From positions 1 to 62,077 of the forward strand of contig DATDYP010000025.1 in the NCBI GenBank assembly GCA_035288985.1: 62,077 nt of DNA. Direction: 5' to 3'. Position 1 is the stretch's first letter. Every line of letters begins with the position of its first letter. The translations under genes and the position numbers were made by a program. The notes below the pieces were generated by a model. It made no database searches and was not told where the DNA came from. It was given only the letters and a program-made list of their open reading frames with translations. The stretch is from Candidatus Nanoarchaeia archaeon. Its GTDB lineage: Archaea; Nanobdellota; Nanobdellia; Woesearchaeales; GW2011-AR9. This document shows, in pieces, positions 6,118-56,466 of the stretch.

Positions 6118-8625
6118 TCAAAAACTATCCAAACTTTTCTGCTGCAAAATCTTTTTGACTTTCATTTTCCCAACCATTGCATCATCTTTCTCTAGTTCTG
6201 CTTGGATTTCCTTAGCCCGTTCAATAACGTCATCAGGCAGACCGGCCAGTTTTGCTACATGCACGCCATAGCTCTGATCAGTGCCTCCTTCAACCAGCTT
6301 ATGCAGAAAAACAACTTCTCCGTCAACTTCCTTGGCTGCGATATTATAATTTTTGATCCGTTCAAATTTTTCCGCCAGCTTGTTCAGGACATGATAATGT
6401 GTTGCAAACAGTGTTTTTGCTTTTATCGAATTGTAGATATGTTCAGCAACACTCCAGGCGATAGAGACGCCGTCAAAAGTGCTTGTTCCACGGCCAATTT
6501 CGTCGAGGATGATTAAACTACGTTCAGTAGCATTGTGCAGGATGGATGCAGTTTCATTCATCTCTACCATAAAAGTACTTTGCCCAGAACTAAGATCATC
6601 ATACGCTCCAACGCGAGTGAAGATCCGATCCACTATTCCTAGCACAGCTTCCTCAGCAGGAACGAAGGAACCTACCTGCGCCAGTAAAACAATCAAGGCA
6701 GTCTGGCGCATGATCGTACTTTTTCCTGCCATATTCGGGCCGGTAATGACCATCATCTCGTTTTCATGAAGGTAAATGTCGTTTGGAATAAAACGTGACT
6801 CAAAGGTTTCGATAACTGGATGCCGTCCATTTCTGATTTGGATAACTTTCTCATCAACAAGCGCTGGTTTACTATAATTATGCTCCATGGCTGTCTTTGC
6901 GAATGAGACAAGAACATCAAGAACAGCCAGGGTTGCTGCCGTTTCCTGCACTTCACTGGTTTTCTCTGCAATTTTGGCAAGTAATTCTTGAAACAGGGTA
7001 TACTCCAGTACATTGATTTTTTCTTCCGCGCCAAGGATTTTCTCTTCCTCGATCTTCAATTCTTCTGTAACATAGCGTTCGGAATTAGCCGTAGTCTGCT
7101 TCCTGATGTACTGTGAAGGAACAAGATGCACATTTTTTCTGGTAACTTCAATAAAATAACCAAACACTCTTGTATAGCCTATCTTTAAGGTGTTGATGCC
7201 GGTTTTTTCTTTTTCTTTCTCTTCCAGCTCCTGCAGGTAGCGCTTGCTGTTCAGTTTGATATCGCGCAAGGAGTCTAACTCCTGATTAAATCCGCGTTTA
7301 ATGATATTTCCTTCCCTGAGAGTGATGGGAACTTCTTCTTTCAGCGCATTTTTAAGAAGAGAATAAATATCCTGCAACGTCTCCATCTCTGCCAGTCTTG
7401 AAAGGAGCGGGTCATCAAAGGAGGATACCTTCTCCTTTATAGCTGGAAGCTGCTGCAATGACTTTTGTAAAGCTAGTAGATCACGTGGATTCGCATTTCC
7501 GTAGTTGACTCTGCTGATAAGCCGTTCTAGATCATATACGCCTTTAAGAAGGCCAATCAGCTCCTCCCTGCTGATGACGTTCTTATGCAGCACCTCGACA
7601 GCATTCAGCCGAGCTTGGATAGCTTCTTTTTGCAGGAGCGGTTCCTTAAGCCAGCGTTTCAATAATCGCGCGCCCATCACCGTGACAGTCATGTCCAGCA
7701 CCGACAACAAACTGCCCCGGCTTGTGCCATCTTTGATATTTCTCGACAATTCCAAATTGCGCAAGGTGCTGGAATCGAGGAGCATGGTTGTGGAATTATT
7801 GCGCAAAGTTATTTTTTTTAGATGGGTAAGAGAGTTTTTCTGCGTGTCAAGAAGATATTTCAACAGCGCCCCAGATACAGCAAGATTATTCTTCTGTTCC
7901 TCCAAACCGAGAGAATCGAGAGAGGAAAGCGCAAAATGATGGAGCAGAACTTCCCGGGCCTTGTCAACTTTAAAAAAATAATCCTCCAGAGTGTTAAGGA
8001 AACAGCCGCTGTTTTCAATTTTAGAGACAAGCTCAACATTGACGCGAAGACTTTCAGGAATAAGGCATTCGGAAGGATGAAGGCGAGTTATTTCACTCAT
8101 CAGCTGAGCCTGTGAATGAGCTGAGCTGGTCACAAATTCCCCTGTAGAAAGGTCACAGAAAGCAATGAAAAACGCTTCACCAAATGAAGTAACAGCCAGG
8201 ATATAATTGTTTTCCTTTTCCTCCAACAATGAAGATTCGATCACAGTTCCAGGAGTGACAATACGTACTAATCCCCGTTTCACCAGACCTTTTGCTGTTC
8301 TGGGATCTTCCAGCTGTTCAATGATCGCAACTTTGTGTCCTTTCTTGATCAATCTGCCTAGATATGTTTCTAAGGCATGGAACGGAACGCCTGCTAATGG
8401 TGCCTTTTTTTCATTCTTACCCCTGGAGGTGAGGGTTATTTCTAATTCCCTTGAAGCAGTGATAGCATCCCCATAGAACATCTCATAAAAATCACCCATC
8501 CTAAGCATGATTAAGCAGTCAGGATGCGCTCTCTTTGCTTCCAGATACTGCCTCATTCCCGGAGTAAGATGTTCTTCTGGAACATTAAGAATGTTTGTCT
8601 CTACCACTTTTTGGGATAGAATCAA
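6118..8625 (-). CDS. mutS: DNA mismatch repair protein MutS (MutS1)
   Basis: GDFYEMF mismatch-binding motif, Walker A GPNMAGKST, SGQSTFMVEM, LDEIGRGT, SYGVHVAKLAGLP. Confidence 0.97.
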   Translation of the reverse strand: MILSQKVVETNILNVPEEHLTPGMRQYLEAKRAHPDCLIMLRMGDFYEMFYGDAITASRELEITLTSRGKNEKKAPLAGVPFHALETYLGRLIKKGHKVAIIEQLEDPRTAKGLVKRGLVRIVTPGTVIESSLLEEKENNYILAVTSFGEAFFIAFCDLSTGEFVTSSAHSQAQLMSEITRLHPSECLIPESLRVNVELVSKIENSGCFLNTLEDYFFKVDKAREVLLHHFALSSLDSLGLEEQKNNLAVSGALLKYLLDTQKNSLTHLKKITLRNNSTTMLLDSSTLRNLELSRNIKDGTSRGSLLSVLDMTVTVMGARLLKRWLKEPLLQKEAIQARLNAVEVLHKNVISREELIGLLKGVYDLERLISRVNYGNANPRDLLALQKSLQQLPAIKEKVSSFDDPLLSRLAEMETLQDIYSLLKNALKEEVPITLREGNIIKRGFNQELDSLRDIKLNSKRYLQELEEKEKEKTGINTLKIGYTRVFGYFIEVTRKNVHLVPSQYIRKQTTANSERYVTEELKIEEEKILGAEEKINVLEYTLFQELLAKIAEKTSEVQETAATLAVLDVLVSFAKTAMEHNYSKPALVDEKVIQIRNGRHPVIETFESRFIPNDIYLHENEMMVITGPNMAGKSTIMRQTALIVLLAQVGSFVPAEEAVLGIVDRIFTRVGAYDDLSSGQSTFMVEMNETASILHNATERSLIILDEIGRGTSTFDGVSIAWSVAEHIYNSIKAKTLFATHYHVLNKLAEKFERIKNYNIAAKEVDGEVVFLHKLVEGGTDQSYGVHVAKLAGLPDDVIERAKEIQAELEKDDAMVGKMKVKKILQQKSLDSF

Positions 8626-27515: not shown

Positions 27516-29801
27516 ATGCCAGAGGAAATCAAACTGAAAGTAATGGAAGCTGTACAGGATGATGTCAATAAGGGCATCGTCAAGATAGATTCCAATTTCA
27601 TGAAACAGATTGAAGTCAATCCAGGCGATATTGTCGAAGTTAAGGGAGAACGAGCAACCGCAGCTATCGTTGACCGTGCTTATCCTGGCGACATCGGCTT
27701 GAATATCATCCGCATGGATGGGAATATCAGGAAAAACAGCCGTACTTCTATTGGTGAGATGGTCACGGTACGAAAAGCGGAAGTGAAACCGGCTGTGAAA
27801 GTGTCCATTGCTCCGGTCAATAAGGGCGTGATGGTCAAAGCCTCTCCAGAACTGTTTAAACAAGGCTTACTGGGAAAGGCACTGATCAAGGGCGACATCG
27901 TTTCCTTAGGAGGACCGCGACGAAGGTCAGCATTCAGAGGAAATGATATTAATGACATCTTCTCTATGATGGAATCACATTTTGCCGGCTATGGCTTTGG
28001 TTCATTGAAGTTTATTGTTGTTGACACCCTGCCGCGCAAGGAAACGGTTGTCGTAACGCCAGAAACAGAAGTTGAATTTAATCCCAAGGCTATCGAGCTG
28101 AAAGAAGAAAGCATCAGTTTAGGGATCAACTATGAAGATATCGGCGGCCTAAGTGAGGAAATCAATAAAGTGAGGGAGATGATCGAGCTGCCGCTGAAAC
28201 ATCCGGAGATTTTTGAAAAGCTGGGCATTGAACCTCCTAAAGGAGTGCTGCTGCACGGCCCGCCGGGAACAGGAAAAACCCTATTAGCAAAAGCAGTTGC
28301 CTCTGAAACAAATGCACATTTTATCTTAATCAACGGTCCGGAAGTGATCTCCAAATTTTATGGCGAATCGGAGGCTAACCTGCGCAAGAAATTTGAAGAA
28401 GCAGAGCAGAATGCACCATCCATCATCTTCTTTGACGAGATTGATGCCATCGCCACAAAACGGGAAGAAACCAGAGGCGATGTTGAGAAACGTGTCGTAG
28501 CACAATTACTAGGCCTGATGGACGGCTTGAAAAGCAGGGGCAAGGTGATTGTCATCGCCGCTACCAACATACCTAATCTTCTTGATGCAGCCTTACGGCG
28601 GCCAGGACGTTTTGACCGGGAAATTGAGATCGGCGTTCCCGACAAGAATGGAAGATTGGATATTTTGAAAATCCATACGCGGAACATGCCTTTGGCAAAA
28701 AATGTCAGCCTTAAAGAAACCGCCAAAGTTACCCATGGCTTTGTAGGAGCGGATTTAAATTCATTAGCTAAAGAAGCAGCCATGATCGTCCTGCGGCGGA
28801 TCTTGCCGCAGTTAAAAGTTGAAGGAGTTGAGGATGGTGAGCCAATCCCAAAAGAGATCCTGGAAAAACTGATGGTGACGCAGAAAGATTTCCTGGAAGC
28901 GTTGAAAGTGGTCAGGCCTTCAGCAATGCGTGAAGTCCTTGTTGAAACTCCGGATGTAGCTTGGACAGATATCGGCGGTTTGGAGGACGTGAAAGAAAGG
29001 TTAAAGGAAGCAGTGGAATTGCCATTGAAAAGGCCGGAAGTGTTCAAGCGCCTGGGCATCAGGCCGCCGCGGGGAATACTATTGTATGGTCCGCCTGGAA
29101 CCGGAAAAACGTTATTGGCAAAAGCGGTAGCCAGGGAAAGTGAAGCTAATTTTATCCTCGTCAATGGTCCGAGCTTGTTAAGCAAATGGGTAGGAGAGTC
29201 TGAAAAGGCAGTCAGGGAAATTTTCCGCAAAGCCAGACAGACCGCGCCAACAATATTGTTCTTTGATGAGATTGATGCTCTCGTTCCGCGGCGGAATTCC
29301 GGGAGCGATGCCAAAGTTAATGAGCGTGTTGTTAACCAGATGCTAACTGAGATGGACGGATTAGAAAGTTTAAATGATGTTGTGATCATCGGTGCAACCA
29401 ACAGACCTGATATTGTTGATCCAGCATTATTGCGGCAAGGGCGTTTTGATCGCGTTATCTTAACACCAGTTGCTGATGAAGAAGGAAGGAAGAAAATATT
29501 TGAGATTTACACCAAGAAAATGCCGGTTGCAGCAGATGTTGATGTGGCTGAATTGGCAGCCAAGACACAGGGCTATGTGGGAGCAGATATTGAAGGAGTC
29601 TGCCGGGAAGCTGGCATGATCGCGCTGCGGGAAAATATAGACAGCAGCAAGATTACCATGGAACATTTCATGAAAGCGTTGGAGATTGTCAATCCTTCCG
29701 TTGACGAAGAAGTTGAGGAAGTGTATGATAAGCTTAAGGATTATTTCAGTTCAGCCAGAGCTAAGGAAATCAAGATTGAGAAAGCGGCTTATTTTGGGTG
29801 A
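27516..29801 (+). CDS. cdc48: Cdc48/VCP-family AAA+ ATPase
   Basis: N-domain plus two AAA modules with GPPGTGKT Walker A, FFDEID Walker B and second region of homology RRPGRFDRE / RQGRFDR. Confidence 0.97.
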
Positions 29802-30553
29802 TGGCAGCAAACAATTCTAGAGTTTTAGCAGTCCTTGCTTCTTCGTTGTTAGGTTGTGGTTCTGACACAGAAACACACGAACAACCATTGATTGTATGTG
29901 TTGATAAAACAAGATACCAGGCAGCAGTTCAGCAATATTATGAAAAATCAAGGGTAGAAGCAGAAGTGCTTCCTCCTGATTGGCCAGCATGGGTGAATGA
30001 TAATTACGATCGTTTTTGTCGCGCTTTTGATCTTACCGAATATAATTCTCAGGTAAAACAAAAAACAGTATCAGTGGTAGTGTTTTATTACAACAATGTT
30101 CCTATCCCTTACAAGAATCCCTGGCCTTCAGAAGAAGAGCATATGGAAGATTTAGAAAAACTATTAGAATTGACCTTTCCAAGCTGGAATTTTGTGGTTG
30201 ATTTTGGAGGGGAGGAATCGTTAGAGAAAATACAAGCTTATGATACCTCTGTATACCTCAATGCCGGAATCAATTTAGGGGGAGCCGGAAGTATCTTTTT
30301 AGATAGGGAAGGAGCGCTTCAACATGAGATGGCGCATGAATTAGGCTTAGAACACCATTATGATGTAATTGAAAATTACGGTAAAGGGATGAATATGGCG
30401 CCTGGTGAAACAAGATGCCTGATGGATATCTCTTCTAACCAATTAGGCAGTCCAGATCGGTTTGCCACCGATATTTCCATGCATATCGATAATGGCGCAA
30501 AAATCAAGGGACTTAAAAAAGAGATTAATGCTCGCTATCCTGATGAATATTAA
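29798..30553 (+). CDS. Putative lipoprotein metzincin-type zinc metalloprotease
   Basis: Lipobox LLGC; [11 protein letters not shown] (HExxHxxGxxH) and Met-turn CLMD. Confidence 0.75.
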
Positions 30554-30574
30554 TAAAAACCTCTCTCTTTATCC

Positions 30575-30914
30575 GTAATACTTTATCTTCTTGAAGTCAA
30601 AGTCGTCGTCTAGGCCTAGTTTTGTAAAATCTACTATGTATACTTTAGTCAAAGTTAAGTTCCGAGCCTATCAAATTCTGTTTTAATATCTAGGCTCAGT
30701 AGATTTTACTGGCCAAGACGACTTTGACTTCTCAATGAGAAAAATAGGGGCAGGCCAGCCAAATCTGGCGAAAATTATTTGTTATTATAACAGTAAAGTT
30801 GATCTTCTTATCAAAGATTTTCGCACCTTAACTATTTCTGACGAATGGTTTAGCAGATTTGGCAACATTGTAGGCCAAGCCCCTATTTTTCTCTTCAGAA
30901 AGCTAAAGTATTAC
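30575..30914. mobile_element. MITE-like element, 340 bp, containing two long nested hairpins
   Basis: Terminal inverted repeats GTAATACTTTA/TAAAGTATTAC, extending to 22 bp with 3 mismatches. 8-bp direct repeat CTTTATCC (30567-30574, 30915-30922). Internal perfect 15-bp stems 30593-30607/30717-30731 and 30737-30751/30879-30893. Confidence 0.7.
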
Positions 30915-30957
30915 CTTTATCCACAATCTTTTTAACTAAAACCCTTATTTTTGCCTT

Positions 30958-31638
30958 ATGAATGGCATAAAGCATCTTGGCATCATTCTGGACGGCAACC
31001 GCAGGTATGCAACAGCAAAAGGCCTGCCGCCCTGGGAAGGGCATAGATTAGGTATAAAGAACGGAAATAAGTTAATCAGCGAGTGGATGGTAGACCTTAA
31101 TATCAAAGAACTGACATTATATCTGTTCTCGATGCAGAATTTTAACAGGGATCCTAAAGAAGTCAAATTCCTTATGAAATTGTTTAAGGAATGGCTAAAA
31201 TCTCTTGATTTTAAGGAATTGAAAAAGAAAGGCATTAAAGTTAATTTTATTGGTAGAATCTATTTGTTCTCTAAAGATATACATTCTTCAATGAAAGAGA
31301 TCATGGAAAAGACTAAGGATAACGAGAATCATATTGTCAATCTGGCCATGGGTTATGGCGGGCAGGAAGAGATTGTTGATGCGGTTAACACTATTTTGAA
31401 GGAGGGAAGATTAAAACAAGTTGATGAGAAAGAATTTTCAAAATATCTTTACCTACAGAGTGAACCTGACATCATCATCAGAACTGGTGGAGCCAGAAGA
31501 ACTTCTAATTTCTTAGTCTGGCAGTCTTGGTATAGTGAATGGTTCTTTACAGAGAAAACCTGGCCGGAATTTACGAAAGAAGATCTGGTTAAAGTGATGG
31601 AAGAATATAAAAAAAGAGAACGAAGGTTTGGGAAGTAA
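30958..31638 (+). CDS. uppS: cis-prenyltransferase (undecaprenyl diphosphate synthase family)
   Basis: IILDGNRRYA, FSMQNFNR, IIRTGG, SNFLVWQSWYSE. Confidence 0.94.
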   Translation: MNGIKHLGIILDGNRRYATAKGLPPWEGHRLGIKNGNKLISEWMVDLNIKELTLYLFSMQNFNRDPKEVKFLMKLFKEWLKSLDFKELKKKGIKVNFIGRIYLFSKDIHSSMKEIMEKTKDNENHIVNLAMGYGGQEEIVDAVNTILKEGRLKQVDEKEFSKYLYLQSEPDIIIRTGGARRTSNFLVWQSWYSEWFFTEKTWPEFTKEDLVKVMEEYKKRERRFGK

Positions 31639-53096: not shown

Positions 53097-53171
53097 TTAC
53101 AAAAATGTCATACCTACTACATTAATGCAACACTTTTCTTTTTCCATCTGCAATAAACACCATAATACACC

Positions 53172-53323
53172 GGCTCTGTAGAAAGCCTTAAAAAAGTCGC
53201 CTTGGCCGCTCGGTTCGTGCTTCTAAATAAGTATCTTCTCGCAGGAAGCACCAATAATATCTGCAAGCAGTGGATGCTCTCACTTCGCCTTAAGGCCCAG
53301 GCGGCGACTTTTTCTACAGAGCC
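53172..53323. mobile_element. MITE-like element, 152 bp
   Basis: Perfect 13-bp terminal inverted repeat GGCTCTGTAGAAA/TTTCTACAGAGCC; 9-bp direct repeat TAATACACC (53163-53171, 53324-53332); internal AAAAGTCGCC/GGCGACTTTT stem. Confidence 0.75.
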
Positions 53324-53330
53324 TAATACA

Positions 53331-53350
53331 CCACAATCTTTAAATATAAT
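53331..53350 (+). promoter_or_regulatory. BRE/TATA promoter of the aro leader and operon
   Basis: CCACAATC-TTTAAATA with an ATG 30 nt after the box start. Confidence 0.7.
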
Positions 53351-56243: not shown

Positions 56244-56275
56244 GCAAAACATTCTTCATAAAAACTCAAAAAACC

Positions 56276-56419
56276 GTACGTATTTAGTTAGTAGGCCAAG
56301 GGTGAATTTTGCTAAGCTTTAGTGACAGGAACAGAAGTGAAAATTATCGATAACAAATCTGTTTACCAACTATTTATCATCAAATTTTCACCAAAATTCA
56401 CGGCCAACTAAATACGTAC
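56276..56419. mobile_element. MITE-like palindromic element, 144 bp
   Basis: Perfect 14-bp inverted repeat GTACGTATTTAGTT/AACTAAATACGTAC; near-direct repeat AAAAAACC/AAAAAGCC; inner GTGAATTTTG/CAAAATTCAC and GTGAAAATT/AATTTTCAC stems. Confidence 0.6.
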
Positions 56420-56466
56420 AAAAAGCCACAATATTTATATTGTCCTGCCCCTTTAGTAGCTCTATA

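Follow-up and report, generated by a model that had tools for sequence, protein, structure and literature searches.

Relatives of the insertion sequence (IS) family IS66 that carry a single open reading frame (ORF) form the ISBst12 group. An experimentally active member of this group, ISDge4 of Deinococcus geothermalis, encodes a transposase of 449 aa between the ends GTGACTACTCAGCA and GTAACTGCTCAGCA and has an 8-bp repeat (PMC12898284). Here we describe a 340-bp element that spans positions 30575–30914 of a 62,077-nt stretch of DNA (the window) from a Candidatus Nanoarchaeia archaeon. The element shares with the ISBst12 group the GTAA ends with ...T(C/T)AGC and the 8-bp duplication, and the ISs that carry its ends have, like that group, a single DDE transposase of about 445 aa without the classic IS66 tnpA/tnpB. 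It differs from the group in that it has no transposase, its partner ISs add a DUF2080 gene, and its host is a DPANN archaeon. The Correia elements of Neisseria, ERIC, and BOX are likewise short, non-coding, multi-copy, intergenic sequences with long hairpins that can affect neighbouring transcription. Correia elements duplicate TA, and both their ends and their duplication differ from those found here. The interior of the 340-bp element also differs from Correia, ERIC, and BOX in that it consists of two separable modules that occur outside the element and in other families of MITEs (miniature inverted-repeat transposable elements).

The position of the element recalls the Mutator-like DDE transposons of the TnGBS, ISLre2, and ISKra4 groups, which insert upstream of sigma-A promoters (PMC3942029). 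In both cases a prokaryotic DDE element lies at a fixed short distance upstream of a core promoter that is left intact. Those transposons use another transposase superfamily in bacterial hosts with sigma-70 promoters, whereas the promoters here are archaeal TATA promoters; the elements described here have no orientation bias, and their targeting would be deduced from the copies that survived. The retroelements Ty3 and Dictyostelium TRE5-A, which insert at RNA polymerase III genes by way of TFIIIB, offer an analogy only, namely a set distance from a complex that contains the TATA-binding protein (TBP) and a TFIIB-like factor. For these eukaryotic elements it has been shown that they contact the host factor. 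The MITE is of a known kind, and its variant features are a two-module hairpin cargo shared with other MITE families and a fixed position upstream of archaeal TATA boxes. The statistics of that position, the gene orientation, the contrast with bacterial sites, and the autonomous partner are new here.

A MITE with IS66-type ends

The 340-bp element is most probably a non-coding MITE with IS66/ISBst12-type ends, a captured cargo of hairpins that we call GGCC clamps, and a promoter-adjacent insertion. It is flanked by two exact copies of the 8-bp target-site duplication (TSD) CTTTATCC, at positions 30567–30574 and 30915–30922. The left terminal inverted repeat is GTAATACTTTATCTTCTTGAAG (30575–30596, plus strand), and the right one, read as the reverse complement, is GTAATACTTTAGCTTTCTGAAG (30893–30914, minus strand). 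These 22-nt ends agree at 19 of 22 positions, and both start with GTAATAC. The host assembly (989 kb, 42% G+C, 79% complete) contains three full copies of the element: the window copy, one at C15:38067–38402, and one at C18:11864–12174. The C15 copy is 94% identical to the window copy and has its own TSD, TTCATAAC; the C18 copy is older, with 81% identity and a decayed TSD (GGAAATCA/GAAAACCA). The element is short and lacks a transposase gene, its ends are inverted, its copies are dispersed, and their TSDs differ from one copy to the next. An earlier note on this DNA, made from the letters alone, had reported the inverted repeats starting with GTAA and the exact 8-bp flanks and had proposed a non-autonomous element. 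Both structural features are present, and the proposal is upheld by the absence of a conserved ORF, by the presence of three copies that each have a separate 8-bp duplication, and by dozens of relatives flanked by TSDs.

The end pattern GTAATACTTTAGCTTTCTG was searched in related genomes with up to 3 mismatches allowed, and the reversed pattern served as the control. Seven related genomes gave 23, 21, 16, 11, 6, 4, and 1 matches, and the reversed pattern gave none. The elements bounded by these ends in the relatives are 46–368 bp long and non-coding, and at least 14 of 21 have perfect 8-bp TSDs, such as AGACATCG, TTTTCACC, TGTTTTGG, and GTAGAAAA. Public genomes added 41 TSD-flanked element spans (40–700 bp), some of them nested or tandem, and elements with the same ends reach 46–524 bp in related Woesearchaeota genera. 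The exact 22-nt end pattern is found in many Woesearchaeota and also in Planctomycetota, Phycisphaerae, Omnitrophota, and Hydrogenedentota, where it again bounds short elements with 8-bp duplications. At loci L075–L184 such ends and duplications enclose MITEs of 109–325 bp in Planctomycetota, Phycisphaerae, Thermoguttaceae, Hydrogenedentota, and Elusimicrobia, and the bacterial contigs that carry MITEs of this type include sizes of 0.5–7.9 Mb. The search for related termini proposed in the earlier note was positive in Woesearchaeota, Planctomycetota, and other bacteria. The presence of the same 22-nt ends in Archaea and in Planctomycetota-type bacteria suggests that the IS lineage has been exchanged between Bacteria and DPANN Archaea. 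A search of paper texts for the end sequence returned only unrelated primers.

The interiors of these elements vary among genomes, and the common form in G020, for example, is a single 165-bp long hairpin. Because the interiors differ, the ends are the conserved part that defines the mobile unit and the cargo can be exchanged. No strong consensus is seen among the duplicated 8-mers. At G016:C2:10540–11060 (L050) two different MITEs lie in tandem and three copies of the 8-mer GTTTTTGA flank and separate them; this 8-mer, next to a TATA box, is a target that has been used twice. Different MITE families also cluster at one promoter-proximal spot in L119 (CAZIUU010000014.1, about 7510–7560), where a type-B-like end, GGCTTAGTAGAAAGTC, comes directly after a type-A MITE.

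An autonomous element with the same ends was found outside the host assembly. Three contigs of G008, from a sister genus, stop exactly 140 bp inside an identical multi-copy element whose first 22 nt match the MITE right end at 22/22 positions. Inward from these 22 nt lie TATA-like boxes, a small hairpin, and then an ATG. A complete IS, at positions 134–1697 (1564 bp) of the public contig JAHITE010000029.1 (L122; 2273 bp), has a left end homologous to these 140 nt. The ends of the L122 IS are GTAATACTTTAGCTCTCTGAAG and, as the reverse complement, GTAATACTTTAGTATTCTGGAGG, with 21/22 positions identical to the MITE right end, and they belong to the same end family as the MITE left end and the ends in the relatives. 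It encodes a "transposase-associated" protein of 46 aa with DUF2080 (NF033496, 55.7 bits, cut-off 22) and a 443-aa IS66-family transposase (NF033517 equivalog, 202 bits, cut-off 180; PF03050, 100 bits). A sister IS of 1526 bp, with a DUF2080-like ORF, a 450-aa IS66 transposase, and diverged ends (GTATGTGCATAGCT), is present in G019, which belongs to the same taxonomic family as the host. The metagenomes that hold the host genome contain many fragmentary contigs that are 80–90% identical to the L122 transposase gene. Many of the MITEs carry GTAATACTTCAGCA, which is comparable with the ISDge4 ends.

The earlier note had regarded GTAA ends with 8-bp duplications as typical of the IS66 family. That view is now supported beyond GTAA and the 8-bp repeat, because the same ends are directly linked to an IS that encodes an IS66-family transposase. 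Derivation of the MITE ends from the ISBst12 group of the IS66 family is thus supported by comparison of ends and encoded proteins. A GTAA start is also seen in the classic IS66 of G030 (GTAAGCG); this IS was rejected as the partner because its ends differ (GTAAGCGTCAAATA). The ORFs that lie between paired ends in G016, G037, G020, and G003 encode a Mur ligase, TrmB, and nucleotidyltransferase/HEPN proteins, and none is a transposase. No TSD-flanked pair of ends 0.7–6 kb apart was found in 120 public loci that would correspond to an autonomous copy.

Several results count against the assignment and against transposition into this site. A search for the IS66 transposase (PF03050) gave no candidates in the 79%-complete host assembly. 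Multi-copy ISs are often lost from binned genomes. Matching 8-bp flanks are absent at both full-length ISs (L122 and G019), for which chimeric contigs are a possible cause, and L122 is filed under an Omnitrophota metagenome-assembled genome, a bacterial label; the contig may be mis-binned archaeal DNA. The empty allele sought at the proposal of the earlier note did not appear: no joined flanks were found in four DNA runs, and the only metagenome match to the 22-mer of the joined flanks was a chance match in an unrelated contig. The reads do contain loose ends with other flanks, which reveal further insertion sites outside this assembly.

A cargo of GGCC-clamp modules

The interior of the element is made up of two long hairpins. 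Hairpin 1 (30593–30731) is a GGCC-clamp module of the B2 type with the order outer stem, GTCTA, GGCC ... GGCC, AA, outer stem; its perfect stems are 15 bp (GAAGTCAAAGTCGTC/GACGACTTTGACTTC), 12 bp (GTAAAATCTACT/AGTAGATTTTAC), and 7 bp. Hairpin 2 (30737–30893) is a module of a second type with perfect stems of 15 bp (GAGAAAAATAGGGGC/GCCCCTATTTTTCTC), 10 bp (GCCAAATCTG/CAGATTTGGC), and about 8 bp. GGCC is paired with GGCC-AA in both. The minimum free energy (MFE) of the plus strand of the whole element is −123 kcal/mol compared to −68.7 ± 5.2 kcal/mol for dinucleotide shuffles (z −10.5), and the opposite strand folds equally (z −10.9). The stems and the shared GGCC pairing are as the earlier note had given them, and its idea of a structured cargo is borne out by the folding statistics on either strand, which it had suggested calculating, and by the homology of the modules to others in the genome.

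The genome was scanned for the clamp layout, defined as an outer stem of at least 9 bp, 0–8 nt, GGCC ... GGCC-AA, and the outer stem again. The layout is present at 23 of the 318 GGCCAA sites. A control with reversed arms gave 0, and other tetranucleotide cores gave 0–1. The modules fall into several types. B2 modules stand alone in three copies, and hairpin 1 is 70% identical over 136 nt to the one at C5:12182–12300. Hairpin 2 is homologous to the stand-alone modules at C15:673–827 and C16:25896–26050. Neither recognisable inverted ends nor TSDs were seen at these three stand-alone clamps or at those at C13:20514–20712 and C22:1590–1733.

Other modules are carried by MITEs with different ends. 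Eight type B modules are resolved in the assembly, with their own ends (GGCTCTGTAGAAA) and 9-bp duplications. One is in the window at 53172–53323 on the minus strand, between the ends GGCTCTGTAGAAA/TTTCTACAGAGCC; its 9-bp duplication, GGTGTATTA (53163–53171 and 53324–53332), is perfect, and its core belongs to the hairpin-1 clamp family. This insertion (53163–53332) lies 5 nt from a TATA-like box, TTATATTTAAAG, and its GGCC-clamp core contains tandem G.A pairs. The type B 5′ arm occurs at eleven loci of the genome, several of which break contigs. A type C clamp MITE with the ends GTACGTATTTAG is located in the window at 56276–56419 on the plus strand, flanked by the 8-bp duplication AAAAAACC/AAAAAGCC (56268–56427 with the duplications). 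Type C has three copies in total, and the other two, at C12:20407–20545 and C21:12818–13014, have the perfect 8-bp duplications TGAAAAAG and GTTTAGGT, respectively. The type C ends loosely resemble those of the sister IS in G019.

The modules extend beyond the host genome. The clamp end GGCCAAGRCGACTTT is present in five other genera of the family, and G016 has truncated right halves of the element that contain hairpin 2. A MITE in G020 (contig C58) has the same IS66-type ends, a 7/8 duplication, and a hairpin-1-type module only. Because both kinds of hairpin occur stand-alone in the genome, and the hairpin-1 kind occurs in this one-module MITE, the cargo is, as judged from these homologies, not derived from an IS, and the 340-bp element is a composite of IS66-type ends and two captured modules.

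Insertion beside TATA boxes

On one side, the TSD-bounded elements are flanked by a TTTAWA-type A/T-rich box that lies a few bases away from the duplication. The distance was tested at 36 non-redundant archaeal sites by scoring an all-A/T 7-mer that ends at a given distance from the TSD, with 20,000 random intergenic sites of the host genome as the control. A 7-mer was 3–7 nt from the TSD at 23/36 MITE sites (64%) compared to 12.3% of random sites (binomial p = 5e-13). The narrower interval of 5–6 nt accounted for 17/36 sites (47%) compared to 5.2% of random sites. In contrast, 13 bacterial sites with the same ends had no peak of an A/T box near the TSD. The order outward from the MITE is the 8-bp TSD, 5–6 nt at the expected position of a transcription factor B recognition element (BRE), the TATA box, about 22 nt, and the ATG of an ORF that reads outward. 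The BRE-position sequences at the insertion sites are GAAAC, ATAAAC, GAAAG, and similar. In most of the 28 sites examined the outward ORF starts 18–47 nt beyond the TSD, mostly 34–39 nt, which fits the start-codon spacing of leaderless archaeal mRNAs. The far side of the insertion often has the stop codon of the preceding gene 0–13 nt away or a second, divergent TATA box. The elements are found in either orientation to the neighbouring promoter. That the MITEs had inserted between a TATA box and its start site was considered and ruled out by the gene orientation, which shows that the promoter reads away from the element. In the left flank of the L122 IS, a TATA-like box (TATATAAAG) is followed by 5 nt and then by 8 nt, which matches the archaeal sites.

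The window copy has the same arrangement. The right duplication is directly followed, at 30923–30936 on the plus strand, by a putative core promoter assigned from its spacing: a 6-nt spacer at the BRE position (ACAATC) and the TATA-like box TTTTTAAC, which ends 21 nt before the ATG of uppS. This gene (30958–31638, plus strand; PF01255, 1.9e-72) encodes a member of the undecaprenyl-diphosphate synthase family, starts 35 nt beyond the duplication, and reads away from the MITE. On the other side, a 251-aa ORF with no family hit (29798–30553, plus strand) ends with a stop codon 13 nt before the duplicated target. The promoter-side end is the right end in the window copy and the left end in the C15 and C18 copies.

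In our reading of these data, the elements truly prefer sites at the upstream edge of the core promoter, and selection in very short spacers has probably sharpened the pattern. A mechanism can be proposed along the following lines. The partner ISs would supply a single DDE transposase of about 445 aa together with the small DUF2080 accessory protein. As expected from the family, the ISBst12-group transposase would act in trans, bind the 22-nt ends, and integrate the element by an 8-bp staggered cut. Insertion in Woesearchaeota would be non-random, with the target 8-mer 5–6 nt from the TATA-like box of an outward-reading gene, and the MITE would thus come to lie just upstream of the core promoter, often within a few bases past the preceding stop. 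In the window this would place it between the 251-aa ORF and the uppS promoter, which is presumably intact.

The strongest competing explanation is that insertion is random and that position reflects survival alone, the copies that persist being those in the dispensable bases between a stop codon and a promoter in a compact genome. The many sites with a preceding stop 0–13 nt from the duplicated target, or with two divergent TATA boxes around them, are as this explanation would have them. Purifying selection in very short intergenic spacers could account for part of the fixed TATA distance. Furthermore, type B and type C MITEs, which have different ends, occupy the same kind of position, so that three families share it. 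This sharing points to a host-side cause, such as DNA bent by TBP and transcription factor B (TFB), or to selection, rather than to a property of one transposase. On the other hand, the random sites were confined to intergenic DNA and still gave 12% at 3–7 nt compared to the 64% observed, and at several sites the element abuts a box although its far side lacks any ORF within 140 nt. The lack of a strong consensus among the duplicated 8-mers and the 8-mer that was hit twice also argue against survival alone. We regard it as a possible but not a probable account of the position.

The site preference can be extended to a broader proposal, which we offer tentatively. In Woesearchaeota, the upstream edge of promoters occupied by TBP/TFB may be where the IS66/ISBst12-DUF2080 elements, the MITEs that go with them, and two or more further MITE families are directed. 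The GGCC clamp would then be a module that moves on its own and is selected for its structure, for instance as a stop for transcription in both directions or as a binding site for protein, and MITE families would exchange it. No report of promoter-adjacent insertion for the ISBst12 group was found in the literature searched, and no archaeal description of insertion just upstream of promoters was found in the searchable literature.

The wider setting of the window is as follows. The neighbouring genes encode a CDC48-type AAA ATPase, an HTH_10 regulator, and the undecaprenyl-diphosphate synthase. Public genomes that share these ends go under the names Candidatus Woesearchaeota or Nanoarchaeia, and these carriers, given the neighbouring genes and the features of the assembly, make the host a DPANN archaeon. 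ARAGORN detects only about 8 tRNA genes in the 989 kb of the host assembly, although more than 20 places have a normal T-loop sequence; most of its tRNA genes seem to bear non-canonical or multiple introns.

Possible roles of the hairpins

The sequences of the modules were compared for signs of maintained pairing. Among the five hairpin-2-type copies, 13/27 consensus pairs have compensatory changes, and invariance is confined to the GGCC/GGCC helix and the AA. In the set formed by type B, B2, and hairpin-1 modules, one stem pair is swapped from C-G to U-A in 6/13 sequences. In hairpin 1 of the C15 copy (C15:38253–38379), one pair of the 15-bp outer stem is changed on both sides from T-A to a G.G mismatch, which is odd for two independent hits on one pair. 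The two strands were also compared across 22 modules. The summed MFE is −1043 kcal/mol on one strand and −1052 kcal/mol on the other, and the number of G.U pairs is 61 and 70, respectively; there is no strand bias in either measure. In the preferred explanation, the interior consists of two captured modules rather than the remains of a deleted IS, and compensatory substitutions on both strands maintain the hairpins.

Because both strands fold equally and the element lies in either orientation to the promoter, our best guess is a strand-neutral structural role, putatively a DNA or single-stranded DNA hairpin or cruciform, or a stop for transcription in both directions that would act between the upstream gene and the promoter. 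The outer stem of hairpin 2 and of type B is of the form A5...T5, which places a T5 run after the stem on either strand. Hairpin 1, type C, and the stand-alone modules have no such run, and for this reason a bidirectional hairpin-plus-T5 transcription stop is a weak candidate for the cargo as a whole. A dedicated small RNA seems less likely as the role of the cargo. Avoidance of restriction was rejected as the meaning of GGCC: the genome has about 2030 GGCC sites, which is the expectation from base composition.

The compensatory changes might have arisen without selection, through correction of quasi-palindromes by template switching between the arms at replication, and the cargo would then be functionless selfish DNA. 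The strand-symmetric pairing without G.U bias agrees with such a process, as does a cargo that differs freely among genomes sharing the same ends. Mutation alone would not keep the GGCC/GGCC-AA core invariant and the asymmetry of the loop fixed across unrelated stems, and we find this origin doubtful.

A further explanation makes the GGCC-clamp modules functional structured RNAs, either small RNAs that are processed or bound by protein or cis-acting elements of mRNA, with the MITE as a mere vehicle that sits by promoters so that the RNA is made. The core is kept in four unrelated stem contexts, with 23 modules compared to 0 in the control, many pairs are compensatory, and the inner stem of type B exchanges tandem G.A/A.G for Watson-Crick pairs, all of which speaks for an RNA. 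The equal folding and G.U content of the two strands does not fit an RNA, and at the sites examined the promoter beside the element reads away from it, the element itself lying in either orientation. A look for RNA runs that contain this stretch found none. Comparison with known RNAs was also negative. Rfam had no match in the window at the gathering threshold, only sub-threshold matches to long microRNA-precursor hairpins. An archaeal bulge-helix-bulge (BHB) requires two 3-nt bulges on opposite strands with a 4-bp helix between them; the modules have a 4-bp GGCC helix, but its 3′ side has a 2-nt AA that faces 1–6 nt as an internal loop and its 5′ side has a bulge of 1–7 nt. A kink-turn requires a 3-nt bulge directly followed by tandem G.A/A.G pairs; the positions next to the bulge are UG, UA, UC, or AU facing AA, and in type B the tandem G.A does not adjoin the bulge. 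Pre-tRNA, split or permuted tRNA, BHB introns, box C/D and H/ACA RNAs, and TnpB/IscB guide RNAs were rejected because their layouts do not fit and ARAGORN and Rfam find nothing at the modules. These results make a functional RNA unlikely.

The modules also resemble the hairpin repeats of REPIN/RAYT systems, which are moved by a Y1 (RAYT/IS200-type) transposase, in having a long hairpin with a conserved tetranucleotide, and some stand-alone modules lack clear duplications. REPINs have neither inverted transposon ends nor a target duplication, unlike the 340-bp element with its inverted ends and 8-bp duplications, and a Y1 transposase (PF01797) is absent from the host assembly; this origin is very improbable. 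A collapsed-repeat artefact of assembly or a small protein gene can be dismissed with near certainty: both junctions between flank and element are crossed by contigs from four independent metagenome runs (groundwater and soil), and the one point in favour, the 66-aa ORF at 30735–30935 (plus strand) that is open in the window copy within hairpin 2 and across the right end, has no family hit and contains stop codons in the C15 copy and in the C18 copy alike. The artefact had been raised in the earlier note, which had also, rightly, judged this ORF probably spurious. Read depth within the element is 2–5 times that of the flanks, as expected of a repeat.

The composite MITE with IS66-type ends remains the preferred explanation, and its meaning lies in its position and its cargo. 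Three MITE families, and free copies as well, share the modular hairpin with its invariant GGCC/GGCC-AA core, and this recurrence points to a putative structure-specific partner. The fixed distance of 5–6 nt from an archaeal TATA box, on the side that spares the promoter, is an arrangement that we found described only for bacterial sigma-A promoters (TnGBS/ISLre2). If the elements are steered there, this would be an archaeal counterpart of the TnGBS/sigma-A or Ty3/TFIIIB targeting. True targeting would provide a simple system for learning how a DDE transposase reads the archaeal pre-initiation complex, and it would explain how the very compact genomes of DPANN archaea tolerate many repeats.

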